Positions 4,905 to 34,233 of a DNA stretch of 64,000 nt are shown here, piece after piece; the stretch's first letter is position 1; every line of letters begins with the position of its first letter. Location: assembly GCA_964437185.1 (NCBI GenBank), contig CAYTFU010000001.1:26304-90303 (forward strand), read 5' to 3'. Position numbers and translations under genes: made by a program. The notes beneath the pieces were generated by a model, which did not search any database, was not told the DNA's origin, and was given only the letters and a program-made list of their open reading frames with translations. The stretch is from an uncultured Candidatus Saccharibacteria bacterium. GTDB lineage: Bacteria > Patescibacteriota > Minisyncoccia > Phycocordibacterales > UBA2100.

Positions 4905-5012
4905 AGTTGTTGTTCACGTGTTCTTCGTATCTTTCCGGCCTGCCCCATTACTTCTAACGGGGTTAATTCGGCATTGTCGTATTTGTTTCGCTGTGCTCAC
5001 AAATACTCTGTG

Positions 5013-5041
5013 CCTCATTAAAAATCCGCGCAACAGCGCGG
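5013..5041 (-). terminator. Rho-independent terminator (minus strand) separating the accessory island from rplC
   Basis: Minus-strand RNA folds a hairpin ccgcgc-uguu-gcgcgg and is followed immediately by AUUUUUAAU. It lies downstream of the gene at 5160..5621 and upstream of rplC. Confidence 0.6.
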
Positions 5042-5159
5042 CCTTAGCCTACACCATTGGTCCCGTATGGGGACGTAGCTTGTCCTTCCATAGTCCGCGC
5101 GAAGCGGACGGAGGAGGACGTGCAGAGCAGTATACGCAGGACAAGAGAAAATGCAATAC

Positions 5160-5621
5160 CTACCCCTGCGGAGCGACATTACTTCTACGAGAGCGGATAT
5201 GAAGCACTTCCGCGAGAATCCATACCATGCCAATCGAGGTCACGCCAAAAAGTATTGGCGCAGGACTATTTGGATCATCGAAACCAAAGGCGGTGTTGAA
5301 TGTGCAAAGTGGCGGCCACGAATCGCACACCTCTTCCTCCGCGACCTCCCCCAACGATGCCGAGGGCGAGGCCTCCCTCTCGGGGCGCCACGTAATCGCC
5401 TCCGCGGTTAGACCACTGCTGTTTGCCTCGGCCGCGAGCGCCTCGACCATAGAATCAATTTGTGCGGTAGAGAGTGTAGATGTGCGCGGGTCATTCAAAA
5501 TCGAGCTTCGGATCACCGCGCGAATGTCTGAGTCGCTCTCTGCGAGCGCAAGGACGGGCACCAAAAAAAGCGCTACGAGTACTACGAAAAATATTTTCGG
5601 AGCCAGAGTCGATTGATTCAT
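5160..5621 (-). CDS. hypothetical secreted protein (signal peptide plus C-terminal hydrophobic segment)
   Basis: Likely start MNQSTLAPKIFFVVLVALFLVPVLALAES, a signal peptide. Acidic mature region, then a C-terminal hydrophobic stretch ILFGVTSIGMVWILAEVL. No recognisable domain. Confidence 0.45.
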   Translation of the reverse strand: MNQSTLAPKIFFVVLVALFLVPVLALAESDSDIRAVIRSSILNDPRTSTLSTAQIDSMVEALAAEANSSGLTAEAITWRPEREASPSASLGEVAEEEVCDSWPPLCTFNTAFGFDDPNSPAPILFGVTSIGMVWILAEVLHIRSRRSNVAPQG

Positions 5622-5687
5622 TGTGTGCATTGTATCACCGTGTTGTGAGGCAGGGCGGCAGTACGCGTAATACATGTGGATCAAACG

Positions 5688-8540
5688 TTATATCGGCACA
5701 CACGTGCCATTCACCTTCACAAATCCTGCAGCACAGTTTTCTTCAAACGTTGGTAGCACATTGACCGTGGACGATCGCGAGACACTCGAAGGAGTCGAGC
5801 CTGGAAGGCCCTGACAGACGATGGTGAAGACTGTCTGAGACGCGATGGGCGAGCTCGTCTTTGCTCCCGTCGGAGTGCTCCACACACCCGTGGCATTGCT
5901 GCCCGTTCCATCGCCGTTGGTCGCCGTCACGCTGCATGACGAAACATTGCTTGCGGTCCAGAAAACATTTACGGACGTGCCGACGCGTACGAGGAGCGGG
6001 ATAACGCTCCACGAAGTGATGGCGGGAGCGGCGGTACCTATGCATCCACCGACAGAACAACCATTCGTACACATCTGAACGAGCGCACCCGTACAACTAT
6101 TGACGACATTGTTGCCCGAACATACGTTCGTGCATGATAGCGGCGGCACGCAGAGACTCGTACTCGGGTCGAGAGTCCATAGAGTGGGGCAACCGATGAA
6201 CGTGCACACGCCGGGTGATGTTTCAGTATATCCGGAGGGGCATCCCATAAACTGACATGAATTTCCGACAAATATGGATCCGATTGGGCAGTCGATTATC
6301 GGCACACAGACGCCGCCCACAAGGGTGTACCCAGGAAAACACGACGTCGGTACACACTGACCATTCACGTCGCGTGACTCACCTACTGGACATTGTGGAA
6401 CACACCCAGAAAGCGTGCTACCCGGGGTGCAGCCATTGGGAAGACATTCGCCATTGGTCATAAGTGTGGTTCCAGACGGGCATGATCCCTGACACTCTGG
6501 AAGTGTGCTGCCGGGAGAGCAGAATGTGATGCTAGAGGCCACAACGTCTATCCACGCGGAACAGTTATTGTCCTCGTTTGAACCCTCATTGATCGCCCCG
6601 AGGTCGGTCGCCGAACTTTTGTCAGCACATGCGCGCACAGAGTACGAGCCAGCCGTCAAAAAAGTGTGTGTCGCAGTAATCGGACTACTTGCGCCTGCTG
6701 CGAGCGCGGAGAAATGAATCGCTGGCGTAAGATCCACAATGGTACCGGTTCCTCCAGCGCCACCCGCAACCTGGAAGAAGTTGTTGAAGCCAACACCTAT
6801 GGATACAGGACCCCTATTCATTATAGTGGCAGACAAGGTAAACGGAGCATTGATAGTGGCACTGCCGGGACTTGTATTTACCGCGGTAAGATCGGGCAGA
6901 TTGTCGACACAAGAGCCACTCTGAAGCACTTGTCCTGCCGGACAAGCCGTGGGCACACACACACCGTCCAGCAAGACCTGACCGGTCGGACACGACACCA
7001 CAGGCACATTAACATTCACCCACTCACTGCAGTTGTTGTTTTCATACGCACCCTCGTTGATGGTACCGGCGTCTGTGGAGGAGCTCTTGTCGGCGCACGC
7101 TCGCGTGGAGTATGTGCCGCCTGCGGTAAAGGTGTGTGGAAGAGATATATCGTTGCTCGTGCCTCCTCTCAGGGATGAGAGAGAAACAGCGGGAGTGAGA
7201 TCGGTGATGGTACCTCCGCCGTTTGCTTCTGATGCGACCTGGAAGAAGTTGTAGAAGCTGATCCAACTCCCCGTTGAGCCAACGCCCGCGTTGGTAATGA
7301 TGGCGGAGAGCGTGGTCGCAACGTCGACCGTGGCGGACGTCGGGCTCGTGTTGAGTGCGGTGAGGTCGGGGCCGAGGGTGCCGCCAGTGTTGTAGAACGT
7401 GCAGGAGACGATGTTGTCTTGGTTCAACTTCACGCCGCCGATGATGCCGTCGACGATGGTGCCGGTGAGCGTTCCGTTGTCGGTTGCGCCCGTGCAGGAA
7501 GCGCCGAGGATGGTGTGGCCGCTCTGCTGGATTTCTTCAACAGACCATGGGCCGAAACCGCTGACTCTGAAAGGCTCCGTGTAGCCTAGGAAGTCGGTGG
7601 TTTTCGAGACGCCGGCGACCGTGAAATCCCACCCAGAGGCTGGAGCCTGATCGTTGGTTGTGCCCAAGTTGCCATCGACGTCGTAGATCTTCTTGACGGT
7701 GATGGTGCCTCCGCATTGCTCACGTGCGATGCTCGCCAAGTCAGTAGCGAGCGTGCTGAAGTTTGAGGAGAATACGCTGTTGGGACTTGCGATTGCCTGG
7801 AGGTTCGCCGCATCGAGACCGCTGCCGATGCCGATGGCGAGGATGCGTGTTCCCGATGACTTGATGGAGTTGGCGACCGTCACTGCTGCTGAGACTGCGG
7901 TGCTCTCGCTCACGCTCGTGTACCCACCGGTCCCATTATTAATCGTGTTTGGGTTGCCGTCGGAGGCGAATATGACGAGGTTGTTGGCTGAGGGACGGGG
8001 GTCGAAGGTGCTCTGCGAAGCGAGGAGTGCGCCCTGCCAGTTGGTGCTCCCTGATCCGTCGATGGCATCGATCTCGGAATTTACCCGCGAAAGATCATTT
8101 CCGTAGGGTAGGAACTGGAGACGGACTGTTGCTGTGTTATCGAACTTCACGAGCGAAAAGAGCGTGGGGGTTTCTGGGAGGAGTGCGCTTGTGAATCCCT
8201 TCAACGCAGACTTCATCTGAGAGAGTTCCGTGTTATCGATTGATCCCGAGACGTCCATCACGAGCGAGACGTCGAGACCGCAGGTGCCCTCGACAGGCAA
8301 GCTACACTGCCCCGCGTAGTCGGCATCGGATGGGCATGATGCGGGGACGATCTGGAGGCCGGAGTGCGAGGCGTCGGTGAATTGGACTTCGGAGGATGTA
8401 AAAGGCTTCGATGAAACTTGTGTAAAAGCTCCACTCAATATAAGTGCGGCCGCAAGCAAAGCGCCGACCACAAATACACCCTGCCATAGGTCTGCAGGAG
8501 CTACCGAGTCATCCTCACGTCGCCTCTTAGGAGCTACCAT
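5688..8540 (-). CDS. giant membrane-anchored surface protein: vWA domain, CnaB-like segment, two CARDB-like repeats and a Cys-rich C-terminal module
   Basis: 950 aa with an N-terminal transmembrane anchor. vWA MIDAS residues are present (DVSGS...T...ASDGNPN). TITVKKIYDVDGN...GWDFTV resembles a CnaB-type fold. Two tandem CARDB-like domains of about 120 aa (NTSP[TG]SAT...ACADKSS). Then a series of C.PG.TL..G.CVP repeats. Confidence 0.7.
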   Translation of the reverse strand: MVAPKRRREDDSVAPADLWQGVFVVGALLAAALILSGAFTQVSSKPFTSSEVQFTDASHSGLQIVPASCPSDADYAGQCSLPVEGTCGLDVSLVMDVSGSIDNTELSQMKSALKGFTSALLPETPTLFSLVKFDNTATVRLQFLPYGNDLSRVNSEIDAIDGSGSTNWQGALLASQSTFDPRPSANNLVIFASDGNPNTINNGTGGYTSVSESTAVSAAVTVANSIKSSGTRILAIGIGSGLDAANLQAIASPNSVFSSNFSTLATDLASIAREQCGGTITVKKIYDVDGNLGTTNDQAPASGWDFTVAGVSKTTDFLGYTEPFRVSGFGPWSVEEIQQSGHTILGASCTGATDNGTLTGTIVDGIIGGVKLNQDNIVSCTFYNTGGTLGPDLTALNTSPTSATVDVATTLSAIITNAGVGSTGSWISFYNFFQVASEANGGGTITDLTPAVSLSSLRGGTSNDISLPHTFTAGGTYSTRACADKSSSTDAGTINEGAYENNNCSEWVNVNVPVVSCPTGQVLLDGVCVPTACPAGQVLQSGSCVDNLPDLTAVNTSPGSATINAPFTLSATIMNRGPVSIGVGFNNFFQVAGGAGGTGTIVDLTPAIHFSALAAGASSPITATHTFLTAGSYSVRACADKSSATDLGAINEGSNEDNNCSAWIDVVASSITFCSPGSTLPECQGSCPSGTTLMTNGECLPNGCTPGSTLSGCVPQCPVGESRDVNGQCVPTSCFPGYTLVGGVCVPIIDCPIGSIFVGNSCQFMGCPSGYTETSPGVCTFIGCPTLWTLDPSTSLCVPPLSCTNVCSGNNVVNSCTGALVQMCTNGCSVGGCIGTAAPAITSWSVIPLLVRVGTSVNVFWTASNVSSCSVTATNGDGTGSNATGVWSTPTGAKTSSPIASQTVFTIVCQGLPGSTPSSVSRSSTVNVLPTFEENCAAGFVKVNGTCVPI
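6545..7367. repeat. intragenic tandem duplication (two CARDB-like domain copies) inside the 950-aa gene
   Basis: Protein segments aa ~392-513 and ~550-665 are about 60% identical. Off-frame ORFs at 6505..6717 and 7033..7254 share SVAELLSAHAR.EY, which shows the similarity holds at nucleotide level. Confidence 0.6.
7002..8396. repeat. copy A of a ~1.39 kb direct repeat (5' coding region of the vWA adhesin paralogues)
   Basis: aa 49-513 of the 950-aa protein are near-identical to aa 46-509 of the 1186-aa protein. Off-frame ORFs at 7693..8106 vs 27332..27757 and 7033..7254 vs 26621..27034 are almost identical, so nucleotide identity is high. Confidence 0.8.
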
Positions 8541-8647
8541 ATATATTTATATAATACCGCGCTTTAAGAGACTAATGCTCCGGGGGTGTGTATACCATGC
8601 TCAGGCAAACACCTCCTAGCGCAGGTCGTCAAAAAATCCACATACAA

Positions 8648-9502
8648 TCATAGCCTATCGGAATCTACTTTCATCTGAATAGTGTGCCGGTTGTCGCTCA
8701 CTGCGTTTTTAAACGCCATAACCCCTAGGCCCGCAACTTGAGGATCATTGCCGGGATATGCCACGAGCCATTGCTGCTGCGAAAGATCTGAAACCGCAGC
8801 GTGCGCTTTCTCTACCTGCGCCAACGCCTCCTCGTAGCGGCCGAGCTCAAACAATGCGGTTGCGCTCGAATTGAGCAGCCAAGGATTTGAGGGAAAATAG
8901 ATAAGCCCTTTTTGAGTGACTTGCTCTGCATATGCATATTGATTGCCCTTTAAGAGCACCCAAGCCAGATCATTGAGAGCTGCCCAGTTGCGAGGATCTG
9001 ATTCTAAATAGCGTTCGTAATCCTTCACTGAGTCGTCGTACCTACCCATATACCCCTCGATCAAACCCCGAATATAGTACGAGGATGCCGACACGGGACC
9101 ATTCGGAAGATTGATCTCCGCGTTTATTCGCACCATTGCTCTATTGAAATTACCCCTCAGAAACGACACGCGAGCGAGCTGGTGGTATACGCCGGGGAAG
9201 GTGGAGTCGAGTTTGAGCGCTTCTTCATACCAATACTCGGCACGTTTAATATCGTACTGGTCGACGTTGCTCGCATTAAAGTGCACGTTGCCATACTCGT
9301 ACGCGAGCTCGGCCGACGGATAAAACGCGAAGGTGATATTCTCTCTCGTCTGACTTTCGGAACCGCTTACGTGCAATACGACACCGACAAAAATGATAGT
9401 AGCTGCAAACAAAAGAAACACGAACTTTCTCACGGACATGCGGACAGCATGATGAATTAACCAACGCATACCGATTAGTATAGCGCGCGAGCCTTTAAGC
9501 AA
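8648..9502 (-). CDS. membrane-anchored TPR-repeat protein
   Basis: One hydrophobic helix (FVFLLFAATIIFVGVVL; possible internal start MSVRKF at 9439), followed by TPR-like helices (AEYWYEEALKLD, YERYLESDPRNWAALNDLAWVL, LGRYEEALAQVEKA). Confidence 0.55.
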   Translation of the reverse strand: MLKGSRAILIGMRWLIHHAVRMSVRKFVFLLFAATIIFVGVVLHVSGSESQTRENITFAFYPSAELAYEYGNVHFNASNVDQYDIKRAEYWYEEALKLDSTFPGVYHQLARVSFLRGNFNRAMVRINAEINLPNGPVSASSYYIRGLIEGYMGRYDDSVKDYERYLESDPRNWAALNDLAWVLLKGNQYAYAEQVTQKGLIYFPSNPWLLNSSATALFELGRYEEALAQVEKAHAAVSDLSQQQWLVAYPGNDPQVAGLGVMAFKNAVSDNRHTIQMKVDSDRL

Positions 9503-9532
9503 TCAATCCGATCATCGCTAACAATGATCGCG

Positions 9533-10630
9533 CTACGACCTCCACCCAATGTGTTTCAGATAATCCGAAAACTCTGGAGACATTTCGGCAAGCACAGAGA
9601 TTTGCCGCCTCATGAAATTCGTAGCGGGTCGCTCTTGCATATCGAGCACATCTTGACCAACACTCGGCAACCCAGATGCACTGTCGACAAAGTCCTGCAG
9701 TATTGATTTTATTCTCTCATCGCCTGCCGAACCTGCTCGAGCAGAACGGACCGCGGCGTAATGCAATAGAAACCTCAACCTCTGCTCTTGCGTGAAATTA
9801 CTCTCCGCATCAAGAGCCTCCATCAGCGCAATTGTGCGCTCATACGATTCGTCGATAATTCTGTGTTCCGTTTCTGGAAAATATAGTGAGATCGTCCCAA
9901 AGGCGATTGAGCGATTTCTATACAAATGCACCTCCCTTATTTTCGGCATTGTTGAAGTCCCGGTAGCGTCTAGCAAGCTATCGCCAGCAGCTACTAGTTC
10001 GCGTATAACTGCCGCAACCTTGAGTTGCTCTGAGCTCTCTACGTTCACGCCTTGCTCATGAAGCTTCTCAGCCAGAATGACTGCCGTTCTAAAGTTCGCG
10101 AAGGGCGTCGGGTTGAGCGCGTTTGAATCCTTAAGAAGGAGTAGTGTCGCTTCTCTTACATCCCCCCCGGCTTGGGTCAAGTACGCATTATAGGGAGGAG
10201 TATCAAACACGAGTTGCGTGAGATTTTCATTGTCCCCTGCAATACGATACAGACCACCGAATCCGTTATACACCCTCGCTTTAAGCTGATCATCGATGCG
10301 AGGACTTGCGGTTATGTCCTTCAAAATGGCAACACCATTCTGGGTATCATCTCCCTCAGATCGACTGAGCAGCGATCGAGCGAGAAAGCTGTTGGCAGCA
10401 CGCGATTCTCGGTCTGTCGAAGATACCGCCACGGCTTGAGAGCTGTACGCGACGGCCTCTGCGAAATCTCCCTTTCGATAAGACGCGTCTGCAGATCTCA
10501 TCAATGATAGAAACCTCTGCGCATGATACTGCGTGTACCCTACATACCCCCCTATACCAACGACTAGAAACACAGCCACCACAACGAGCGGAGAAATGGG
10601 CCTTTTAGCTTGTGGTGATAAATCGCTCAT
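9533..10630 (-). CDS. hypothetical membrane-anchored protein
   Basis: Long ORF 9533..10867; the likely true start is MSDLSPQAKRPISPLVVVAVFLVVGIGGY (single TM helix). The rest is a soluble domain with no recognised motif. Confidence 0.45.
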   Translation of the reverse strand: MSDLSPQAKRPISPLVVVAVFLVVGIGGYVGYTQYHAQRFLSLMRSADASYRKGDFAEAVAYSSQAVAVSSTDRESRAANSFLARSLLSRSEGDDTQNGVAILKDITASPRIDDQLKARVYNGFGGLYRIAGDNENLTQLVFDTPPYNAYLTQAGGDVREATLLLLKDSNALNPTPFANFRTAVILAEKLHEQGVNVESSEQLKVAAVIRELVAAGDSLLDATGTSTMPKIREVHLYRNRSIAFGTISLYFPETEHRIIDESYERTIALMEALDAESNFTQEQRLRFLLHYAAVRSARAGSAGDERIKSILQDFVDSASGLPSVGQDVLDMQERPATNFMRRQISVLAEMSPEFSDYLKHIGWRS

Positions 10631-10664
10631 TCGTCCTTTAATGCACGATTCCGTATTGCATATG

Positions 10665-10952
10665 TTACAGAGCGCCATCGCTGCCGGCGCCGTCGGTACC
10701 GTCGCCACCACCACCACCGGCGCCGTCGCCGGTGATAGCGCTATCCGCGGCAGCACTGTCGGCAGCACTGTCAGCCGGCGCATCTGCGTGGACCACGGAA
10801 AGACCGGCCTCTCCTCCACCATCCAGTGAAAGCTGCTTTTTCGACGGGAAGAGAACAAGTAACACAAGGAATCCTAGAAAAACCGCAGATGCGGCCACCG
10901 CACCTCTCGCCATGCGCCCCATCCGACCATACGTATTCTGTATTACGATCAT
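10665..10952 (-). CDS. small membrane protein with Gly/Asp/Ser/Ala-rich C-terminus, divergent from ycaO
   Basis: 95 aa with a TM helix AVAASAVFLGFLVLLVLF, then ADSAADSAAADSAITGDGAGGGGGDGTDGAGSDGAL. The gene contains a 12-nt tandem repeat. It overlaps the antisense ORF 10732..11037, so coding status is uncertain. Confidence 0.3.
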   Translation of the reverse strand: MIVIQNTYGRMGRMARGAVAASAVFLGFLVLLVLFPSKKQLSLDGGGEAGLSVVHADAPADSAADSAAADSAITGDGAGGGGGDGTDGAGSDGAL

Positions 10953-11039
10953 GCAGGATTATTCTCTCATAAAATTGACATCCGAGACGCAAATCCTGTG
11001 GACAAGTAACGAGAACCGGGTCCGTCTGCAGCCCTAGGG

Positions 11040-11045
11040 TATAAT
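11040..11045 (+). promoter_or_regulatory. candidate -10 hexamer (TATAAT) 6 nt upstream of the ycaO ATG, implying a leaderless transcript
   Basis: A perfect tataat at 11040-11045 with the ATG at 11052 and no Shine-Dalgarno in between. The -35 is poor (cgggtc). Confidence 0.35.
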
Positions 11046-11051
11046 GCCCTC

Positions 11052-12491: not shown

Positions 12492-12496
12492 AAACC

Positions 12497-13213
12497 ATGA
12501 CTTTATTTATCTCACACATCCATTCCGAGATACGGCGAGCGCGCACTACGAAGCGGGGTGCTACGCATAGCGCGAGAGATGTTCCGAGGGGTACGCACAA
12601 GGAATACGCACGCATGCAGAAGGTTGCCCTTCCTCCACCGAACCCAATACTTGCTCCATTCGGCGAGGTGATACATACAAGGACTTCCTACCGCAATTGC
12701 ACGCACGGCCAGGACGCTGCCATACCCATCGAGACATTAAGTACACTTTTGGGATCAGCACTCAAAAAGCGAGCCGAAGCTTCGAATAGAAACTACCCTT
12801 CGGGAGGAGCACTATATCCGGTCGAGACCTATTTGATCACCGAGGCACTCGACGGATTCGGACCAACCGTATTTCACTACAATCCCACGCACCACGAGCT
12901 TGAAACATTGTGGCCGCTCTCCTCCCGTCTCACCCTCAAAGACCTGGCTCGAAAACCGGATGATCTTCATTTTTCATCGCTCATAGTTTTTACAAGCGTG
13001 TGGAAGCGCTCTTCGGCAAAGTATGGAGACCTTGCCTACACGCACGCACTTCTTGAAGCCGGACATATGTCTGAGAACATACTTCTCACGGCAACTGCCC
13101 TCAACCTTCTCACACGACCAATGGCTGGCTTTTCTGATGAAAAGATAATTGAGATTTTAGATCTGGACCCCGAGGAAGAGCAGCCGATACATACCATCGT
13201 ACTGTGCCGATGA
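12497..13213 (+). CDS. SagB-type (nitroreductase-fold, FMN) dehydrogenase
   Basis: Shows RTSYRNC...PIETLSTLLGSAL and the diagnostic PSGGALYPVETYL, as in the PSAGGLYP motif of TOMM dehydrogenases. The likely start is the internal MQKVALPP at 12614. It lies 6 nt downstream of ycaO and its end overlaps the next gene. Confidence 0.65.
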   Translation: MTLFISHIHSEIRRARTTKRGATHSARDVPRGTHKEYARMQKVALPPPNPILAPFGEVIHTRTSYRNCTHGQDAAIPIETLSTLLGSALKKRAEASNRNYPSGGALYPVETYLITEALDGFGPTVFHYNPTHHELETLWPLSSRLTLKDLARKPDDLHFSSLIVFTSVWKRSSAKYGDLAYTHALLEAGHMSENILLTATALNLLTRPMAGFSDEKIIEILDLDPEEEQPIHTIVLCR

Positions 13214-14862: not shown

Positions 14863-14870
14863 TTTGTACG

Positions 14871-22690: not shown

Positions 22691-22705
22691 AATTATTTTT
22701 CCGTC

Positions 22706-22974: not shown

Positions 22975-23110
22975 AGTGTACCGTCTCAGCAACAAAGAAA
23001 ACCCGCATCCGTCTATAAGCGGAGCGGGTTTTCTTTGTTATTTCTTAGAGAAGAAATTACGCAACTACCTTGGTGACTACTCCTCAGGATGTTTTATGCG
23101 GTAATCCGCA

Positions 23111-23148
23111 GAAAACTTCGGATGCCGCATTCGCAAAGCGAATGCGGC
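23111..23148 (-). terminator. hairpin downstream of tuf (11-bp perfect stem gccgcattcgc/aaa/gcgaatgcggc) with a weak U-run
   Basis: Seen directly; the U-tract (guuuucu) is 8 nt beyond the stem, so a Rho-independent function is plausible but not canonical. Confidence 0.4.
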
Positions 23149-23158
23149 GAGCACCGAC

Positions 23159-24358: not shown

Positions 24359-24609
24359 ACCATTTTTCTTTTACTCTTATGTCGCTAGGGACTAGCTAAC
24401 AACACTACTAATATGTGTGTAACGCCAACGCGAGGTGGAGCGAATGCTCCGGTGTCCAGCTGTGATTTTCTGCCTCACGTGCATCTACTTCCGTTCCCTG
24501 AGGAGACGGGCGGGTCGCTACGCCGCGATACAAAATGGAGCAAAAGAATACGCACTGGACGTGCGTTGCACCATAGTATCAAAGTCGTTCGGAGCGTCAA
24601 GTTTTTTGC

Positions 24610-27600: not shown

Positions 27601-28170
27601 GGAGGCGAATATCACGAGGTTGTTGGCAGCGGGGCGAGGGTCGAAGGTGCTCTGTGAAGCGAGGAGTGCGCCCTGCCAGTTGGTGCTCCCTGATCCGTCG
27701 ATGGATGAAATGGTCGAATTTACCGATGTGAGATTGTTTCCATTGGGAAAGAACTGAGAACGCACGACCGCGAGATTGTCAAAGCTAACGACCGAAAACA
27801 GCGTGGGGGTTTCTGGGAGGAGTGCGCTTACAAATGATTGCAGAGCAGTCTTCATCTGAGAGAGTTCCGTGTTATCGATTGATCCCGAGACGTCCATCAC
27901 GAGCGAGACGTCGAGACCACAGGTGCCATCGACAGGGAGGCTGCACTGTCCGGCGTAGTCTGGAGACGAAGGGCACGACGCGGGGATGATCTGGAGGCCG
28001 GAGTGCGAGGCGTCGGTAAATTTCACCTCCGAAGAAACAAATCCCTGTTGGCCTGAATAATTCGCCAGTACAGAAAGTATGCCGAGCACACAAACGAATA
28101 CGATAAGCGCGGCTCGAAATCCATCGAGGTCATACGAACGACAGAGGGCCATGAGGCGTTTTATATTCAT
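24610..28170 (-). CDS. giant surface protein paralogue (vWA, CnaB-like and CARDB-like domains), with a ~330-aa glycine-rich low-complexity region and Ig-like C-terminal domains
   Basis: 1186 aa. aa 46-509 are near-identical to the 950-aa protein. A unique middle region (aa ~690-1020) is about 50% Gly (GGGGGGEFGSDGGGGGAYSKI ... GIIVVTYSP) without G-X-Y periodicity. Its start lies 10 nt after the stop of the upstream gene 28181..28657. Confidence 0.7.
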   Translation of the reverse strand: MNIKRLMALCRSYDLDGFRAALIVFVCVLGILSVLANYSGQQGFVSSEVKFTDASHSGLQIIPASCPSSPDYAGQCSLPVDGTCGLDVSLVMDVSGSIDNTELSQMKTALQSFVSALLPETPTLFSVVSFDNLAVVRSQFFPNGNNLTSVNSTISSIDGSGSTNWQGALLASQSTFDPRPAANNLVIFASDGNPNTINNATGGYTSVSESTAVSAAVTVANSIKSSGTRILAIGIGNGLDAANLQAIASPNSVFLSNFSTLATDLASIAREQCGGTITVKKIYDVDGNLGTTNDQAPASGWDFTVAGVSQTTDFLGYTEPFKVSGFGPWSVEEIQQSGHTILGASCTGATDNGTLSGSIVNGIIGGIQLNQDNIVSCVFYNTGGTLGPDLTALNTSPTSATIDVATTLTAIITNAGVGSTGISFPNFFQVASAANGGGTITDLTPAVSLSSLRGGTSNTISLPHTFTAGGTYSTRACADKSSSTDAGIINEGANEGNNCSEWVNVNVPFPPPSCSVNLSPDSVVGSQSSTLTWSSTNATAMSISGVGAVSLSGSTSVVPGVSTTYIGSVSGPGGDSTCTVTLNVLSCSISFDSNPINPTQTTNLNYTSSGASSFTIANHGNVSVASPGSVAVSPVSTTDYTGTVEAAASGAQKVIFLTDTTATSWIAPADFFPPWKIEVIGGGGGGEFGSDGGGGGAYSKITHSDLSLSPGQTIYVKVGSGGASGIGGGDSWINKDVSAPPTSTTNGVLAKGGEAGTTGGGPGGASAQGIGSVKYSGGKGGADGGGTQRRAGGGGAAGPGGVGGVGGNGSATTDYAKGGGGGASTLAGPGNAGAAGDTDGGNGGANGSGAGAGTGATGSSVATNGTVGGGGGGGFNSGSYAAGGYGGAGTIWTQTAGGATAGPGGGSGGGGTGDGGLYGGGGGAAGTSPGTGAQGIIVVTYSPSLPLSTSCPAILTVNPPSGTFTLTPSTISQGGSATLSWTNIGGASWTIYASTATTGPTLFLTGSSADGSVVVTPSYSTTYTGSITGPSGIGSFSPATLDVTCAPVYSCSGNTIQYKNASCIISNVTTCVSPGFCSPGSSVCLYPPPTPTPSSTLTGNLQVFPSIVRPGVSTKLYWNMANVSSCSVTSSPDIGSWVGATNVAGGQATPAINQRTVFNLSCVGLDGSTFTGSATVSIVPTFQEAR
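26644..28035. repeat. copy B of the ~1.39 kb direct repeat (see 7002..8396)
   Basis: Same evidence as copy A. The copies are about 19.6 kb apart in direct orientation and bracket rpsJ, tuf and about 15 other genes. Confidence 0.8.
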
Positions 28171-28180
28171 GCGCGTCTCT

Positions 28181-28657
28181 TCAATTTTTAGTGACAGTCA
28201 CCGTACCTGATTTACCCGCATCAAGCTTGTTAGAAAATCCCCATGTACCGGGTAGATCAAAAGTGAATTCATAATACTCACCGGGAAACAAAGCCTCGCA
28301 GGAATCAAACGCACTTGATCCGCACCCCGTAATTGACCCTGGGTAGATGGGGCCTGCTGTGGGATCCGAGGCGACCCACAAATCGCCGGAAGACCCATTG
28401 TAAAATCGCACATTGTCACCCTTTTTTATCGTAAACGTGCGCGGATCAAACCCCCCATCCGAATACGAAATAAGCATTTGAAATCCTTTTGGATTTTGCG
28501 ATGCGGTCGCCTCTTCAGGAGTCATTGAACGCCGTACGGCTGGCTTATCTGCCGTGACCGACGTACGTGACATAGCAAAAAACGCTGCGACCGCCGAAAG
28601 CACGAAAAGTGCGGCGACCGCAAGGACGAGCCAGAGGATTGGTTTCCCAATATTCAC
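28181..28657 (-). CDS. small membrane-anchored exported protein, co-transcribed upstream of the 1186-aa adhesin gene
   Basis: N-terminal TM/signal (ILWLVLAVAALFVLSAVAAFFA). The beta-rich domain (TFTIKKGDNVRFYNGSSGDLWVASDP ... TVTVTK) is cupredoxin/Ig-like in pattern but lacks clear metal ligands. Confidence 0.4.
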   Translation of the reverse strand: MNIGKPILWLVLAVAALFVLSAVAAFFAMSRTSVTADKPAVRRSMTPEEATASQNPKGFQMLISYSDGGFDPRTFTIKKGDNVRFYNGSSGDLWVASDPTAGPIYPGSITGCGSSAFDSCEALFPGEYYEFTFDLPGTWGFSNKLDAGKSGTVTVTKN

Positions 28658-28741
28658 ACATTCAGTATACGCTGTATATATTCACACTCGTGCCCTATCC
28701 ACAGTCAGTTCTTCTACCAACCCATATGGTACTCTTTCGAC

Positions 28742-29272
28742 ATGAACGAAGGAGGCAAAAAAACAACGAACAATATCATTGACCTGAATGACGCGCGCCG
28801 AAACCGCGGACTCCCCCCCCTTCTCAAGGTGGCTGTGGCGAACGAAGCGCCACTACCACCTGATCCAATTGAACATCTCCTCAACGGAGATTTTGTTGCA
28901 GCACGCGAACAGATTGAGCGCGGGGCACAAGGTCACGAAAACTCATTATTCAACTATTACTTCGGCCTTTGGCACGATTATAAAAGATTCCAAGAAATGG
29001 ATATTGAGCTTCCGAGTATTGAGAGAGCAAACCCGCATGTCAAACTCTTTTTACAGTCAGTGCCTGGATCTCTCGAATTTTTCAATCAAATTTTTGCAAT
29101 AATGCGAGAATCGGGATACACGACTGAAGACCGCGTACGAATCGAGGCGTACTTCGGACGCATCTCGGCAGCCGAGAAAGCTCAGAATCCTTCATGGTAC
29201 GATCCTGTCTTTAACGAGCGCATGGGTAACATGCGCCTCGCGCTTCAAAATATCTTCCCTACGCAGCCTTAG
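28742..29272 (+). CDS. hypothetical protein
   Basis: 176-aa ORF with no recognisable motif; the composition looks like a real protein. Confidence 0.35.
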   Translation: MNEGGKKTTNNIIDLNDARRNRGLPPLLKVAVANEAPLPPDPIEHLLNGDFVAAREQIERGAQGHENSLFNYYFGLWHDYKRFQEMDIELPSIERANPHVKLFLQSVPGSLEFFNQIFAIMRESGYTTEDRVRIEAYFGRISAAEKAQNPSWYDPVFNERMGNMRLALQNIFPTQP

Positions 29273-29287
29273 AATCTGACCACGATT

Positions 29288-29812
29288 TCATTGCCGGTCC
29301 GCGAACGTCGTTGAAGGCTTCCGTCGCCTTTTTATATATTCAAGCGCCATATATTTTAGACTCATGTTGAGACTCTCTGCGTCGTTAGGATCGTAGCCAC
29401 GCAACTTTCGCAATATATCCATCGTACTCATTCTCGCATACGGATTTTCTTGGGGTTCAGCGACTCCACCAGCGATAGCTTTCGCAAGTGGATCGATCTG
29501 CTTTTCAAGGTACAACTCCGCGAGAGCGAGGAGTCGTGGCGCATCTTCTGGATTCGCAGAGGGAGCGACTTCCTTATTGGCCATGCCAGCAAGTGACTCA
29601 CGCACTTCGTCGGGCTGCTCCTGTAGCTTCAATCGCTCCGCCCGCACCGCCCGAAAACCTTCATCGGTATCGAGTAGGTGATGGTGCGTCGCAAGAAGGT
29701 TGCCGGCCAAATCATCCATCTGAAACTCAAGCCGCCCGACACCGCTACCTCCAACGTTTTCATGGCCGGCGAGCCGCACCGTTGGTCTCAAGTTCTCGGG
29801 ACCTTGTCTCAT
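29288..29812 (-). CDS. hypothetical protein
   Basis: 174-aa ORF with no recognisable motif. Confidence 0.3.
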   Translation of the reverse strand: MRQGPENLRPTVRLAGHENVGGSGVGRLEFQMDDLAGNLLATHHHLLDTDEGFRAVRAERLKLQEQPDEVRESLAGMANKEVAPSANPEDAPRLLALAELYLEKQIDPLAKAIAGGVAEPQENPYARMSTMDILRKLRGYDPNDAESLNMSLKYMALEYIKRRRKPSTTFADRQ

Positions 29813-29848
29813 ATCATTGACAACGACTTGTACTCAAATGGGGCGCTA

Positions 29849-30652
29849 TTAGCGTGTGAAAACAAACGTGGCGCTTGAAGCGGTAAGCGATGTGACAGCG
29901 ATGGTGAGTTGGCGCGAGTGGTCAGTGGTTACCTTGCTCCCCTTCTGAATCGTCACAACCTGCGATTGGAGGCCGCCGCTTACTTTGCCTGTAACGCGCA
30001 GCTTCGCGCCGCCCGAAACAGACATCAGCTCAATCCGATACGCACCGTTGGCGATCGTACTCTGCGCTTCGATGAGACCTTGGCGGATGTAGAGCGATTC
30101 GGTGACGGTGCTCGTCGCGAGCGAGAAGCCCTTGAGGGGATACTCCACTCCGTTGGCAATGAGCCCCTTCACACACGGACGCAACATTTGATCTTGCGTC
30201 GCGGTGTCGAGCACGCCTGTCTGCGCAAGCCCCATCTCGCGTTGATATCGTTTGAGGTTTGCTTCAGTGGTTGCATCAAACGTGCCTGTGATAGACGACG
30301 CGGGAAGGCTGTAGGTTCCCATAAAGAATTTTTGCAGTGTGGCGACACCGCCAACAAAACCCGATGCGGTATCACTATCTCCGAGTTTTGCGGTCGCGGT
30401 AAATTGCGGACAAAAGACACTGCTCGATGTGACAGGTCCTGCCGGCGCTTTCGGAGCAGCAGGCTTAGAGGATGATTTCGCGGGAGTTGGAGCAGGCGCG
30501 GGTTCGCCCGTGGCCGGTATGGTGGTGCTCGCATTTTCTCCCACATCAATGCCGACATCAGCAGGGAGTAAACGGCTAGAAGATGAAAAATACCACACTG
30601 TTAAGGCGATGCTCGCGGCAAGGGCGAGCCCGAGAATAGATTGCGTACTCAT
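29849..30652 (-). CDS. membrane-anchored protein with peptidoglycan-binding (PG_binding_1-like) domain
   Basis: N-terminal TM helix (ILGLALAASIALTVWYF), a Pro/Ala linker, then GFVGGVATLQKFFMGTYSLPASSITGTFDATTEANLKRYQREMGLAQTGVLDTATQDQM, which fits a PGBD fold. Confidence 0.5.
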   Translation of the reverse strand: MSTQSILGLALAASIALTVWYFSSSSRLLPADVGIDVGENASTTIPATGEPAPAPTPAKSSSKPAAPKAPAGPVTSSSVFCPQFTATAKLGDSDTASGFVGGVATLQKFFMGTYSLPASSITGTFDATTEANLKRYQREMGLAQTGVLDTATQDQMLRPCVKGLIANGVEYPLKGFSLATSTVTESLYIRQGLIEAQSTIANGAYRIELMSVSGGAKLRVTGKVSGGLQSQVVTIQKGSKVTTDHSRQLTIAVTSLTASSATFVFTR

Positions 30653-30666
30653 GCCGCAAGTGTAGC

Positions 30667-30726
30667 CTACTTTCGAGCGGCAATCACGGTGTCAGCCACT
30701 GCTTTGGGTACAATCGCCCCGTAGCA
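30667..30726 (-). other. diverged duplicate of the fusA 3' end (orphan fragment encoding ..YGAIVPKAVADTVIAARK*)
   Basis: The reverse-strand frame reads ICYGAIVPKAVADTVIAARK-stop. The real fusA ends FSHYAIVPKAVADTVIASRK-stop about 95 nt upstream on the same strand. Nucleotide identity is about 70% with near-identical protein. Confidence 0.7.
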
Positions 30727-30761
30727 GATGCTGCGCATCGCTACGGGGTAAACTCTGTGAC

Positions 30762-32903
30762 TTACTTACGAGAGGCGATTACAGTATCAGCCACGGCTTT
30801 TGGAACGATGGCGTAATGACTGAATTCGAGGTTGGGAACGCCCCGGCCTTCGGTGGCGGATCGGAGCTGGGTCGTAAAGCCGAAGAGTTCTGAAAGGGGC
30901 ACCTTGGCGGTAATGACGCGCGCCTGCCCGCGCTCCCCCATCGCTTCGATAGAACCACGCTTTGAATTGACCATACCTGTCACATCGCCCATGAATTTTT
31001 CTGGCACGACCACTTCGAGCTTCATGATCGGCTCAAGAATGACGGGCTTTGCTTTCGCCATTGCTTCTTGCATAGCATTGATCGCGGCGAGCTTGAAAGC
31101 GATTTCGGATGAGTCGACGTCGTGAGCAGAGCCATCGTAGAGCTCGACGGAAATGTCGACCACCGGAAATCCTGCCTGAATGCCGCGCTCCATTGCTTCG
31201 ATGAGACCCTTTTTGACCGGCTGGATGTACTCCTGCGGAATTACGCCTCCCTTGATGTTATTGATGAACTCGAAGTGATCTTCGCGTTCGACATTATTCT
31301 TGATTTTCTTCCCTTCTTCCACTGGCTCAAGTGGCTTCACGCGGATTTTTACGTGGCCGTATTGGCCGCGACCACCCGTCTGCTTGATGTGTTTGTACTC
31401 AACATCGGCAGTGCCCTGAATCGTCTCGCGATATGCGACTTGCGGCTTACCTGTCGTCGCCTGCACGCCAAATTCTCGCTTCATACGATCAACGATGATT
31501 TCGAGGTGGAGCTCGCCCATGCCGGATACGATGGTCTCCATCGTCTCGGGATCAGACTTGATGCGGAAGGTTGGGTCCTCGTCCGAGAGCTTGGAGAGTG
31601 CCATACCCATCTTCTCTTGGTCTGCCTTGGTGTTCGGCTCAATGCGCATCGAAACGACCGGCTCCGGAAAGACGATGGACTCGAGCGCGATCGGATGATC
31701 GGCGTCGCAGAGAGTGTGGCCGATTTTCACTTCTTTCATACCCACAGCAGCAGCAATCTCACCCGCGTACACTGTCTTCACGTCTTCGCGCTTGTCGGCC
31801 TGAAGGCGCACGATTCGGCCTACACGTTCTTTCTTGTTGTTGGCAGAATCGTACACAGTCTCACCCGCAGTAAAAGAACCCGAGTACACGCGGAAGAATG
31901 AGAGCTGCCCGACGAACGGATCCGTTTGGATTTTGAAAACGAGTGCCGAAAACGGCGCTTCGTCCGAAGCGGGGCGCGTATCTTCAGCCCCCGTGTCTGT
32001 GTTCGTCCCCTTGGCAGCTGGCATGTCGAGCGGCGATGGAAGATAATCGACAACAGCGTCGAGGACGAGTTGCACTCCCTTATTCTTGAGCGATGAGCCC
32101 GTAAGGACGGGGAAGATTTTGTTGGCAATAACGCCCTTGCGGAGGGTCTTCTGGAGCACCTCAACAGAAATCTCTTTACCATCGAGAAATTCGGCCATTA
32201 CTTCGTCATCGAGCTCAACAATTCGCTCTACGAGCTCTGTGTGATACTTTTTGGCTTCAGCCATCATGTTTTCGGGAATGTCGAACGAAGAGACATTTTT
32301 GCCCATCTCTCCTTCAAACTTGTATGCCTTCATGTGCAGGAGGTCGATGATTCCAGAGAATTGATCTTCGAGACCGATTGGTATCTGGAGACGCACGGCC
32401 TTCGTAGACAAACGATCGAGGATGGACGCGTAGGACTTTTCAAACGACGCACCGGTGCGATCGAGCTTGTTGATGTAGCAGATACGTGGCACGTTGGCCT
32501 CTTCAGCGTAGCGCCAGTTGGTCTCAGACTGTGGTTCGACGCCCGCAACGCCGTCAAAGACGACGACCGCGCCATCGAGCACACGCATGGAGCGCTTCAC
32601 TTCGGAGGTGAAGTCGATGTGTCCGGGGGTGTCGATAATATTGAAACGAATTTTCTGTGACGTATCAGCGCCCATGTAGGTAGGGTTCCAGAAACACGTG
32701 ATCGCCGCAGCGGTGATGGTGATGCCGCGTTCGCGCTCCTGTTCCATCCAGTCGGTCACCGTGTTGCCCTCGTGCACTTCGCCGATTTTGTGCGATTCGC
32801 CGGTGTAGTAGAGGATGCGCTCAGACGTGGTGGTCTTCCCCGCGTCGACGTGGGCCACAATCCCGAAATTGCGAACTTTCTCCAGAGGGTAATCTCGACT
32901 CAT
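30762..32903 (-). CDS. fusA: elongation factor G
   Basis: 713 aa; AHVDAGKTTTSERILYYTG, DTPGHIDF and the complete EF-G domain series. Confidence 0.95.
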   Translation of the reverse strand: MSRDYPLEKVRNFGIVAHVDAGKTTTSERILYYTGESHKIGEVHEGNTVTDWMEQERERGITITAAAITCFWNPTYMGADTSQKIRFNIIDTPGHIDFTSEVKRSMRVLDGAVVVFDGVAGVEPQSETNWRYAEEANVPRICYINKLDRTGASFEKSYASILDRLSTKAVRLQIPIGLEDQFSGIIDLLHMKAYKFEGEMGKNVSSFDIPENMMAEAKKYHTELVERIVELDDEVMAEFLDGKEISVEVLQKTLRKGVIANKIFPVLTGSSLKNKGVQLVLDAVVDYLPSPLDMPAAKGTNTDTGAEDTRPASDEAPFSALVFKIQTDPFVGQLSFFRVYSGSFTAGETVYDSANNKKERVGRIVRLQADKREDVKTVYAGEIAAAVGMKEVKIGHTLCDADHPIALESIVFPEPVVSMRIEPNTKADQEKMGMALSKLSDEDPTFRIKSDPETMETIVSGMGELHLEIIVDRMKREFGVQATTGKPQVAYRETIQGTADVEYKHIKQTGGRGQYGHVKIRVKPLEPVEEGKKIKNNVEREDHFEFINNIKGGVIPQEYIQPVKKGLIEAMERGIQAGFPVVDISVELYDGSAHDVDSSEIAFKLAAINAMQEAMAKAKPVILEPIMKLEVVVPEKFMGDVTGMVNSKRGSIEAMGERGQARVITAKVPLSELFGFTTQLRSATEGRGVPNLEFSHYAIVPKAVADTVIASRK

Positions 32904-32909
32904 AGGTGA

Positions 32910-32925
32910 CAGCTGTCAGCTTATA
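32910..32925. promoter_or_regulatory. perfect 12-nt palindrome TGACAGCTGTCA between divergent fusA and hicB starts (candidate operator)
   Basis: gtgacagctgtcagc lies 7 nt upstream of the fusA ATG and about 20 nt upstream of hicB. Its function is inferred only. Confidence 0.3.
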
Positions 32926-32943
32926 GCTTTTAGTTAATACAAA

Positions 32944-33276
32944 ATGAAAACGCCCGAAGGCGTGCTGGTAATGTACCTTGGATTTCCAGAAATGCCAAGC
33001 GGTTGCGCCAAGGAGTCAACCATATATACTGACACTATGAAGCGGCGGCAATATACAATCAAAACTCGATTCGGCGCTCACGTCTGTGTGTTTGAAAAGG
33101 ACACGAAAGGATACCTCGTGGTCGCCAAAGATATTAAGGGCGTCGTTACCTGGGGCAAGAACATCGCTCACGCGAAAGCAATGGCCAAAGAAGCACTCGA
33201 GCTGATGATCGAAACAACCGCCATCGAATCCCCGTTATCTGTTGCAGTGAAGAACAACAAATATCAGATGGCATGA
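32944..33276 (+). CDS. hicB: HicB-family antitoxin
   Basis: YTIKTRFGAHVCVFEKDTKGYLVVAKDIKGVVTWGKNIAHAKAMAKEALELMIE matches the HicB (UPF0150) fold pattern. A possible start is MKRRQY at 33036. It overlaps hicA by ATGA. Confidence 0.65.
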   Translation: MKTPEGVLVMYLGFPEMPSGCAKESTIYTDTMKRRQYTIKTRFGAHVCVFEKDTKGYLVVAKDIKGVVTWGKNIAHAKAMAKEALELMIETTAIESPLSVAVKNNKYQMA

Positions 33277-33503
33277 GTGTCATTCCGATAATCGGAGTTC
33301 GAGTAATGCTCCGTGTCCTCCAGAAATCTGGCTTTTATGTGGTGCGACAAACTGGGAGTCATTTGAGGCTCGTAAATCCGTCAATCAATAGATCCGTCAC
33401 CCTTCCCATGCACGCGGGCGACTTGTCGCGAAAGATGACTGCAGCCATCCTGAAGCAGGCCGGGATATCGACTCTTAACTTTCTTGAGTTACTCGGCAAG
33501 TAG
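33273..33503 (+). CDS. hicA: HicA-family mRNA interferase toxin
   Basis: VLQKSGFYVVRQTGSHLRLVNPSINRSVTLPMHAGDLSRKMTAAILKQAGI matches the HicA/YcfA consensus (K.GF...RQ.GSH....H...). Confidence 0.7.
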   Translation: MSVIPIIGVRVMLRVLQKSGFYVVRQTGSHLRLVNPSINRSVTLPMHAGDLSRKMTAAILKQAGISTLNFLELLGK

Positions 33504-33605
33504 GTAAAGCTAGTGTTCAGATTTTTAATGGACGCGTGGAAGACACGGCACGTATGCGCCTTTCATACCGTAACAAGAGGTACCAGCGATTAAGCAAGAC
33601 ATGAC

Positions 33606-33633
33606 CTCCCGAGGTTAAACCTCGGGAGGTACC
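33606..33633. terminator. strong hairpin (cctcccgaggtt/aa/acctcgggagg) between convergent hicA and gene 33652..34152
   Basis: A perfect 11-12 bp inverted repeat with no clear U-tract on either side; possibly a bidirectional terminator or structural element. Confidence 0.4.
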
Positions 33634-33651
33634 ACATGCGCCTTGTTGGTC

Positions 33652-34152
33652 TTACTGTAATTTTGTGATGCTCACGACTGTCTCCTCTACGCAACCGCCG
33701 GCCGGATAGCTCCCAGCTATATACTCATCGAGTACTATTCGCACTGTATCTCCATAAGAAACATCAGCATCTTTAACTTCCGAATTGCCGATACAAATTC
33801 CATTTACCACCCATTGAGGATCCGAATGCGGGAGCCGCGTGCTGCTTTTGGCTATTTCGAGCATAGGTCCACTTATTTCTCCACTAAGAAACTTTCCCTC
33901 AAGCGCCGCGTGACCCTTGAAGGTAATTTTGAAGTTTTCTTCACGCGGAAGATCTACCTTCGGTTCGAAAGGTTCGACTTTTACTACCTCAAATTCCCCC
34001 ACCAAATCCCCCACTTGAATTTTTTCGACATCGATATAAGAGAAGTATTGCGGTGAATGAGGTGGAGATTGGTTTATCCTGTTCTGAAAAACGAAGTATC
34101 CACCTACCGCAGCGAGAACAATCACGCCAGCAAAGATGATCCGCCTATTCAT
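33652..34152 (-). CDS. hypothetical membrane-anchored protein
   Basis: 166 aa with an N-terminal TM helix (IIFAGVIVLAAVGGYFVF) and a soluble domain with no known motif. It is inserted between rpsG and fusA together with hicBA. Confidence 0.4.
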   Translation of the reverse strand: MNRRIIFAGVIVLAAVGGYFVFQNRINQSPPHSPQYFSYIDVEKIQVGDLVGEFEVVKVEPFEPKVDLPREENFKITFKGHAALEGKFLSGEISGPMLEIAKSSTRLPHSDPQWVVNGICIGNSEVKDADVSYGDTVRIVLDEYIAGSYPAGGCVEETVVSITKLQ

Positions 34153-34233
34153 ACAAAAATATTACCACGCGAAGTGGGCGAAGGCTTTGTTGGCTCCCCC
34201 CTTGCTAAAGCTTCGGAGGGCAAGTCGGCCTAG

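Follow-up and report, generated by a model that had tools for sequence, protein, structure and literature searches.

Insertions in the ribosomal supercluster

Multigene insertions between operons of the bacterial ribosomal supercluster are known (tusDCB, bfd-bfr, ilv-leu and nrdHEF), and in Gammaproteobacteria and Bacilli such an insertion appears to relax the selection for operon synteny, which is followed by full disconnection in some species (Brandis 2021, PMC8046335). Here we describe the str-S10 gene string in a 64 kb window (the whole stretch analyzed, from contig CAYTFU010000001.1), in which four blocks of unrelated genes separate the core genes while their order and orientation are kept. 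The locus is a variant of these insertions from the candidate phyla radiation (CPR), and the splits probably reflect an old, lineage-wide loosening of the string into separately promoted units, with spacers that gain and lose genes, rather than a recent island. As in the published cases, a mobile element is not apparent, one suggested route is duplication, and some descendants are fully disconnected: in L164 (tuf 92% identical to that of the window) neither fusA nor rpsJ lies within 10 kb of tuf, and in L166 (tuf 93%) rpsJ is absent from this range. Most of the published insertions, however, lie between operons, e.g., at str|S10, whereas three of the breaks described here (rpsG|fusA, fusA|tuf and rpsJ|rplC) are at places that belong to the interior of one operon in Escherichia coli and Bacillus. 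Moreover, the breaks are frequent over a phylum-level radiation of very small genomes and the spacers reach 14-16 kb.

Terminator-promoter overlaps are found at operon joints of Salmonella, and it has been argued that contiguity is selected for by them (Brandis, Cao and Hughes 2019, PMC6735719). A similar geometry is predicted at three joints of the window, where the putative promoter of the next unit is followed by a hairpin and its U-tract, namely at fusA (32998-32950), tuf (24600-24550) and rplC (5156-5026); in L173, a relative with a compact fusA-tuf joint, such an overlap would fill the entire spacer. In contrast to Salmonella, the apparent overlaps occur here alongside frequent loss of contiguity.

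In cyanobacteria and plastids, rpsJ goes with the str genes, away from rplC, and in Mycobacterium tuberculosis tuf (Rv0685) and rpsJ (Rv0700) are about a dozen genes apart. As in the window, a break at tuf|rpsJ or at rpsJ|rplC is tolerated there and rpsJ can be uncoupled from rplC; unlike these single fixed breaks, four breaks coexist here and their content varies among close relatives. With genomic islands and integrative elements, the locus shares accessory blocks, toxin-antitoxin and surface proteins, a composition that is perhaps somewhat deviant and variation among relatives, but it has no integrase, tRNA target or flanking repeats, and several of its genes are kept in place in relatives. 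No description of such fragmentation in CPR or Patescibacteria was found in the literature searched, the coverage of which is incomplete, so that its absence is unproven.

Anatomy of the interrupted string

Pfam scans and the listing of open reading frames (ORFs) place rpsL-rpsG-fusA-tuf-rpsJ-rplC-rplD-rplW-rplB-rpsS-rplV-rpsC-rplP in the canonical order on a single (minus) strand. Contiguity, with at most a few hundred base pairs between genes, is broken by four gaps: 1330 bp at rpsG|fusA (junction 1, 32904-34233), 6403 bp at fusA|tuf (junction 2, 24359-30761), about 3900 bp at tuf|rpsJ (junction 3, 19234-23158; 3868-3925 bp) and 13,948 bp at rpsJ|rplC (junction 4, 4905-18852), which together hold 25.6 kb of other genes. 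The initial annotation of the locus, made from the sequence, had reported these four interruptions with preserved order and orientation, and its sizes and gene calls are essentially right.

All core genes are on the minus strand. The string opens with rpsL (S12; 34813-35271; PF00164, E = 7.6e-34), which is called with 138 amino acids (aa) in the independent contig L171 and the true start of which is probably 35229 (gene 34813-35229). It continues with rpsG (S7; 34234-34695; PF00177, E = 1e-47), fusA (30762-32903; five EF-G domains), tuf (23159-24358; three EF-Tu domains; best relatives 92-97% identical) and rpsJ (S10; 18853-19233; PF00338, E = 1e-29). The rpsJ ORF reaches 19290, and the start at 19233 is fixed by conservation among relatives and by the gene call in L001; the S10 protein carries a Lys/Ala-rich N-terminal extension of about 30 residues, versions of which with variable sequence are present in L162, L172, L173 and L174. 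Past the last gap, the S10 operon is intact from rplC to rplP (rplC-rplD-rplW-rplB-rpsS-rplV-rpsC-rplP, 330-4904, identified with Pfam). It starts with rplC (4272-4904, also a Pfam call; GTG at 4880 may be an alternative start), which is followed by an unbroken rplD-rplW-rplB-rpsS-rplV-rpsC-rplP-rpmC run to position 91.

The best EF-Tu matches among species-representative genomes belong to Patescibacteria (Kaiserbacteria, Zambryskiibacteria, Adlerbacteria and Minisyncoccia; up to 83% identity), and matches of 92-93% in a large protein database are named Kaiserbacteria. The organism is a Kaiserbacteria-like member of Patescibacteria (CPR), with a tiny genome.

Resident genes shared with close relatives

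Every close relative sampled (tuf 91-97% identical) has open junctions. In L173 (tuf 92%, fusA 83%), rpsG|fusA and fusA|tuf are compact (9 and 198 bp) and the tuf|rpsJ spacer of about 3.1 kb contains YciI-like (67%), GNAT (54%) and DUF924 (67%) genes in the order and orientation of the window; YcaO (26%), nitroreductase (33%) and tetratricopeptide repeat (TPR; 43%) genes follow rpsJ, and rplC is not reached. In CP066682.1, a complete 859 kb Kaiserbacteria genome (loci L172 and L176; fusA 86%, rplC 83%), the 6.6 kb at fusA|tuf encode two PG-binding proteins and a protein bearing the C-terminal domain of the VWA proteins of the window. The tuf|rpsJ spacer is 1.3 kb, and the 16 kb at rpsJ|rplC include a PQQ/PRTase gene (42%), a member of the h482 family with five transmembrane segments (5-TM; 45%), a TPR gene (52%), two h174b-family genes and a 328-aa protein that consists of only the N- and C-terminal parts of a VWA protein; no rpsG is present in the 1.3 kb upstream of fusA. 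L164 and L166 retain YciI-like homologues after tuf, and before tuf L166 has an h158 homologue and L164 a TPR homologue. In L082 (fusA 84%), rpsG|fusA is 2.8 kb and fusA|tuf exceeds 10 kb, with PGBD, VWA-C-terminal and h158 homologues after fusA.

Altogether, genes resident at the same junctions as in the window are found in L173, CP066682.1, L166, L164, L175 and L082. At least one relative has, in the corresponding place, the YciI-like, GNAT, DUF924, PQQ/PRTase, h482-family, TPR, h174b-family, h158 and PGBD genes; in L172, L166 and L082, the fusA|tuf spacer or the stretch immediately before tuf again contains PG-binding genes, h158-family genes and the C-terminal domain of the big protein. 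Since these genes occupy the same junctions in relatives, the blocks appear to consist of old residents rather than fresh islands. Conversely, hicBA, relB-yafQ, CapA, h355 and h444 were not found at these sites in the relatives compared, except that L084 (fusA 72%) also has hicBA at rpsG|fusA, there co-directional with the ribosomal genes and thus in the opposite relative orientation to the window. The toxin-antitoxin pairs as well as CapA, h355, h444 and junction 1 as a whole seem to be specific to this lineage. The initial annotation had regarded relatives with the same genes in the same interrupted order as the mark of an ancient, stable arrangement; such sharing is seen in part at junctions 3 and 4, less clearly at junction 2 and not at junction 1.

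Signatures of mobile elements were sought and were not detected. No integrase, recombinase or transposase is present among the Pfam-scanned ORFs of the window (a few very short ORFs were left out), no tRNA or tmRNA is present in it, and Rfam gave no match over its whole length. The repeat search of the window found no direct (att-like) repeats flanking the blocks, the only long direct repeats being segments inside the two VWA genes. This 1.4 kb repeat (copy 1, 7002-8376 on the minus strand, in the 950-aa protein VWA950; copy 2, 26647-28015, in the 1186-aa protein VWA1186) makes the two proteins mosaic: residues ~46-513 are about 90% identical and the remainder 20-50%, with sharp boundaries, and the 465 codons of the segment differ by 87 synonymous and 43 non-synonymous changes. 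The mosaic is the sole sign of recombination and indicates exchange of a segment between the two VWA genes. In addition, the 5-TM proteins h482 (junction 4) and h494 (junction 3) are paralogues (38% identical).

Promoters and leaders of the separate units

Promoters were read from alignments of the upstream regions of relatives and from the sigma-70 consensus. Conserved sigma-70-like promoter sequences precede fusA, tuf, rpsJ and rplC, all on the minus strand, and, at the sequence level, the inserted genes sit between units headed by these conserved -35/-10 pairs. The fusA promoter-like site (32998-32950) combines -35 TTGGCA (32998-32993) with -10 TACATT (32975-32970), downstream of which lies a hairpin with a U-tract (ACGCCTTCGGGCGT, 32963-32950); the -10 element and the hairpin are kept in L172. 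The putative tuf promoter (24600-24573; -35 TTGACG, 24600-24595; -10 TACTAT, 24578-24573) is common to L174, L166, L172 and L173. It heads a conserved 5' stretch of about 200 nucleotides (nt) within 24359-24600, with a U-tract hairpin (24566-24550), a conserved hairpin with C-G to U-A swaps between relatives (24526-24510) and the stem CCGGAGCA...GCGTTGGC (24452-24424), which is kept in six relatives with changes only from G-U to A-U.

The predicted rpsJ promoter (19273-19234) has -35 TTGCTT (19273-19268), a 17-nt spacer ending in TG and -10 CATACT (19250-19245), and this TG-extended -10 element precedes the ATG by 11 nt; the block GTGCATACTC..GGGTTCTATGACAGC is kept in the window, L174, L162, L172 and L173. 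For rplC, the candidate promoter (5156-5129; -35 TTGCAT, 5156-5151; -10 TATACT, 5134-5129) is followed by a conserved leader motif (GACCAATGG, 5062-5054) and by a GC hairpin with a U-tract (CCGCGCTGTTGCGCGG, 5041-5026; -12.7 kcal/mol) that was found by the terminator scan. This leader is kept in the window, L174, L175 and L176, with about 130 extra nt from hairpin to start codon in the window. The tuf leader has no Rfam match even at a relaxed E <= 1, and both the tuf and the rplC leaders, neither with an Rfam match, are candidate regulatory RNAs. The S10 leader of E. coli contains an attenuator under L4 control; by analogy, the rplC leader could be a comparable attenuator that moved before rplC as rpsJ became detached.

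The tuf promoter is present in L173 inside the 198 bp fusA-tuf spacer, where the next gene upstream is fusA, which suggests that tuf was promoted independently before the fusA|tuf insertion. Given that the promoters are kept, including in the compact L173, separate promoters would predate at least this insertion and would be its precondition rather than its consequence. The initial annotation had argued that tuf, rpsJ and the rplC operon must now use separate promoters because of the insertions; the promoters themselves are borne out by the conserved -35/-10 pairs, with fusA as a further case, and their derivation from the insertions is not. Its claim that the blocks are bounded by terminators is plausible only. 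Strong stem-loops, albeit without a clear U-tract, follow rpsG, fusA, tuf and rpsJ. On the other hand, all three canonical terminator-like elements beside core genes (fusA, tuf and rplC) lie downstream of the promoters of those genes, and the scan gave no canonical terminator between rpsG and h166, fusA and the PGBD gene, or rpsJ and h355. Consensus promoters and terminators are as numerous in the window as in shuffled sequences and are informative only at single sites that are also conserved.

Distribution of the splits in Patescibacteria

The core proteins of the window were mapped onto 80 tuf-anchored genome loci and 80 fusA-anchored metagenome loci; a junction was considered open at a gap of at least 600 bp, and rates were counted over the Patescibacteria-like loci (~130). 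The most frequently open junction is fusA|tuf (75-78%), followed by rpsG|fusA (42-47%), rpsJ|rplC (28-34%) and tuf|rpsJ (0-10%). By comparison, rpsL|rpsG is never open (0%), and none of the gaps measured exactly at rplC|rplD reaches 600 bp (maximum 588 bp). In other phyla, among the few loci with adjacent genes, the median gaps at rpsG|fusA, fusA|tuf and rpsJ|rplC are 50-90 bp; the corresponding estimate for tuf|rpsJ is unreliable, the median being negative once the N-terminal extension of rpsJ is corrected for, as are the censored counts, owing to second tuf copies and undetected rplW. Matches of 2.6-3.2 kb in metagenomes that resembled inteins or insertions in fusA turned out to be cross-matches between the GTPase domains of EF-G and EF-Tu that joined fusA to tuf.

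The ORFs in the gaps of 40 other Patescibacteria loci are a miscellany, among them CTP synthase, alanine racemase, CofD, pilin-like proteins, response regulators, NUDIX proteins and Phd/YefM antitoxins; no recurring cargo and no mobile-element gene is present among the 25 families listed (of 46 matched). Except for one weak PRTase match, the accessory proteins of the window had no match at E<1e-3 in the loci of 80 GTDB species, and they are common only to much closer relatives. Thus, a highly conserved bacterial gene order seems to be routinely opened at fixed joints, which would be pre-existing promoters, over a whole radiation of tiny genomes, and this provides a natural test of operon concatenation, rather than gene content, as the protector of the supercluster. 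There is also a practical consequence for marker pipelines that assume 16 syntenic ribosomal proteins on one short stretch, because in these lineages S10 (rpsJ) is often 2-16 kb from L3 or on another contig.

Origin of the spacers

We infer that the promoters and hairpins function and that a lost constraint on contiguity is the cause of the splits, and likewise the order of events given below; what is observed is the anatomy, the genes shared and not shared with relatives, the conservation of the promoters, the VWA mosaic and the lack of mobile-element genes. In this lineage, the str-S10 string would no longer form two long operons but a row of five units transcribed on their own (rpsL-rpsG, fusA, tuf, rpsJ, and rplC with the genes after it), with fusA, tuf, rpsJ and rplC each run from a sigma-70-type promoter of its own and, at fusA, tuf and rplC, with a U-tract hairpin just past the promoter that would resemble a terminator-promoter overlap or an attenuator. 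If the units are transcribed independently, DNA between them would leave their expression intact, so that the spacers would act as ordinary inter-operon space. Such spacers may have gathered genes, chiefly for envelope and surface proteins and small enzymes. Some of these would have been long kept (YciI-like-GNAT-DUF924; PQQ/PRTase with 5-TM; TPR; the surface-protein and h174b genes before rplC). The VWA segment and the h482/h494 pair would have arisen by local duplication or conversion, the selfish toxin-antitoxin pairs hicBA and relB-yafQ would be recent gains, and other parts would have been lost or replaced in relatives.

Several observations weigh against this scenario. The blocks have a GC content of 0.48-0.52, i.e., 2-6 points below the rest of the window (0.54), and tetranucleotide correlations of 0.39-0.87, which at each of junctions 1-4 fall under the 5th percentile of background segments of equal size; junction 1 is the lowest of the blocks in both respects (GC 0.477). 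The k-mer composition of the blocks had been proposed as a check by the initial annotation; the background is just 29 kb, tuf and rpsL-rpsG also score low, and the composition could reflect either some genes of foreign origin or weak expression of accessory genes. Furthermore, the closest relative, L174 (tuf 97%, rplC 90%), has almost no tuf|rpsJ content in common with the window: the genes in its 4.4 kb spacer are unrelated to those of the window, its tuf is preceded by a 1447-aa PKD protein, and its rpsJ|rplC spacer of 2.3 kb contains just a surface protein with a VWA-type C-terminal domain and an h174b homologue. Likewise, the 8.6 kb tuf|rpsJ spacer of L162 (tuf 93%) holds 14 unrelated genes. 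Turnover this fast could require an active mechanism. Finally, the flank limit of 10 kb leaves several junctions of relatives censored, and the function of promoters and hairpins is read from conservation and consensus.

The initial annotation had proposed that the locus is a recombination hot spot, i.e., that foreign DNA repeatedly and preferentially enters the four sites, possibly via an integrase encoded elsewhere or via the adhesin repeats. The strong differences in content stand, with junctions nearly all different between genomes of 92-97% EF-Tu identity, as does the swap of the 1.4 kb segment between the VWA genes of junctions 2 and 4; together with the low GC and atypical tetranucleotide usage of the blocks and with toxin-antitoxin pairs, typical mobile cargo, in two junctions and in the spc operon of L175, these findings favor a hot spot. 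Nonetheless, fragmentation is widespread in Patescibacteria, integrases, transposases, tRNAs and flanking direct repeats are missing from the 64 kb, several genes of the blocks have syntenic orthologues in relatives, and no mobile-element gene recurs among the families listed for the 40 loci. The VWA repeat accounts for a homogenized gene pair and not for the arrival of the blocks. In L173, the region from recJ to rpsL is collinear with the window, though with indels, i.e., indels also occur outside the cluster and an excess at the four sites is unproven. Taken together, a hot spot seems rather unlikely.

Comparably improbable is functional placement, whereby genes near tuf and rplC would be kept there for strong growth-linked transcription or shared regulation, most clearly the pairs of surface and small proteins just upstream. 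A co-directional surface protein gene (with a conserved C-terminal region of ~130 aa) followed by an h174b-family gene directly precedes rplC in the window, L174, L175 and L176; a big surface protein precedes tuf in the window, L166 and L174, and is accompanied by an h158-family gene in the window, L166 and L082 (where tuf is past the end of the locus); and a YciI-like gene follows tuf in the window, L173, L166 and L164. The lack of canonical terminators downstream of rpsG, fusA and rpsJ in the scan would also fit. However, strong stem-loops follow fusA, tuf and rpsJ, each downstream translation gene is apparently divided from the surface-protein gene by its own promoter and terminator-like hairpin, many of the junction genes are on the opposite strand, and the content is not kept in L162 or at tuf|rpsJ of L174.

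A more specific proposal, to which we give slightly less credence still, is that the tuf and rplC spacers are conserved "expression sites" for variable surface-protein cassettes in Kaiserbacteria-like CPR. The cassettes would combine a fixed N-terminal anchor and a fixed C-terminal region of ~130 aa with swappable middles (VWA/CARDB, PKD, fn3 or Gly-rich), would each have a small membrane protein from the h158 or h174b family as a partner, and would be subject to gene conversion between sites. The surface proteins of relatives do have the same N- and C-terminal ends with other middles (PKD, fn3, Gly-rich, or none in the 328-aa protein of CP066682.1). If the proposal is true, such sites would allow episymbionts to vary host-contact proteins in a manner tied to the neighborhood of translation genes.

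The assembly was compared with independent contigs, found by exact-protein look-up in other assemblies followed by megablast against the window. Contig k141_2551212 (ERZ27247837; 22 kb) matches 3546-25580 without gaps at 99.8-100% identity, from rplD across junctions 4 and 3, including the entire VWA950 repeat copy, and tuf into VWA1186; k141_90563 (ERZ27247820) corresponds to 29819-37399 (the end of the PGBD gene, fusA, junction 1, rpsG, rpsL and beyond); and two Logan assemblies agree with the window up to position 7182. A chimera, joined via the VWA repeat or between strains, which the initial annotation had considered, is very improbable: although the other contigs end at or near the repeat, at 25580 and 7182, and no second contig among those retrieved covers the stretch between 25580 and 29819, agreement is 99.8-100% over three junctions, the repeat copies are just 81-91% identical in DNA, and the same neighborhoods (a PG-binding gene after fusA; the big protein and h158 before tuf) are present in relatives.

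Gene content of the junctions

Coordinates below are on the minus strand unless indicated otherwise. Junction 1 contains h166 (33652-34152; 166 aa, with an N-terminal membrane anchor), hicA (33273-33503, plus strand; PF07927, E = 1.4e-15; 57.6 bits vs. a cut-off of 27) and hicB (32944-33276, plus strand; HicB_lk, E = 3.7e-5; 24.3 bits, under the curated cut-off of 27). Junction 2 encodes the PG_binding_1 (PGBD) protein (29849-30652), the hypothetical proteins h174a (29288-29812), h176 (28742-29272, plus strand) and h158 (28181-28657), and VWA1186 (24610-28170). Weak similarity of h158 to cupredoxins and plastocyanin-like proteins (TIGR02656, E = 4e-4) is below the threshold and is the only NCBIfam result for the ten unannotated junction proteins. 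A common family for h158 (before tuf) and h174b (before rplC) was considered and rejected (hhalign probability 0.2%); the two are unrelated.

In junction 3, yafQ (22706-23104, plus strand; 38.3 bits vs. a cut-off of 30) and relB (22343-22690, plus strand; 41.3 bits vs. 22.4) are followed by YciI-like h112 (21977-22315; 112 aa), GNAT (21404-21811), DUF924 (20822-21364) and the 5-TM protein h494 (19326-20732, plus strand). Two of the junctions thus have type II toxin-antitoxin pairs in Pfam, HicAB with a sub-cut-off HicB_lk score and RelB/YafQ.

The genes of junction 4 are h355 (17652-18719; 355 aa), CapA (16559-17602), h65 (16282-16479, plus strand; a 65-aa ORF), the 5-TM paralogue h482 (14832-16280, plus strand), the PQQ-propeller/PRTase gene (13204-14862, plus strand), nitroreductase (12497-13213, plus strand), YcaO (11052-12491, plus strand), h444 (9533-10867; 444 aa), TPR (8648-9502), VWA950 (5688-8540; VWA/CARDB, 950 aa) and h174b (5160-5684; 174 aa). 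A crude hydropathy scan indicates an N-terminal anchor or several membrane segments in most of the junction proteins. The plus-strand cluster at 11052-16479 (YcaO, nitroreductase-fold, PQQ-propeller/PRTase, 5-TM and the 65-aa ORF) has the look of a biosynthetic cluster for ribosomally synthesized and post-translationally modified peptides, which to our knowledge is unusual in a CPR genome; parts of it are also found after rpsJ in L173 and in CP066682.1. The spacers are home to this cluster and to fast-changing envelope and surface genes, and may be a good hunting ground for genes of host interaction.

Neighboring genes and related loci

Between rpsL and rpmB (L28), at 35272-38338, the window encodes proteins of 393 and 298 aa and a homologue of the 23S rRNA intervening-sequence protein (37825-38232), whereas L173 has a single gene for 211 aa in this place; accordingly, gene turnover is not restricted to the four junctions. 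In L175 (rplC 89%), relB-yafQ and a response regulator lie between rplE and rpsH of the spc operon (7386-8412), the usual place of rpsN (S14), and L174 has a gap of 530 bp there with no S14 call. A partial second copy of rpsG is present within the rpsG|fusA spacer of L082 (8592-8816), and L127 has two full-length rpsG copies in tandem (1636-2679); these copies are traces of local duplication at the rpsG|fusA joint.

ComEC and RecJ are encoded at 41894-47299. A set resembling type IV pilus and type II secretion systems follows at 52174-63336, with a T2SSE ATPase, a T2SSF platform protein, N-methyl pilin-like proteins and an unannotated protein of 969 aa; such a set, with ComEC and RecJ, is typical of the CPR.

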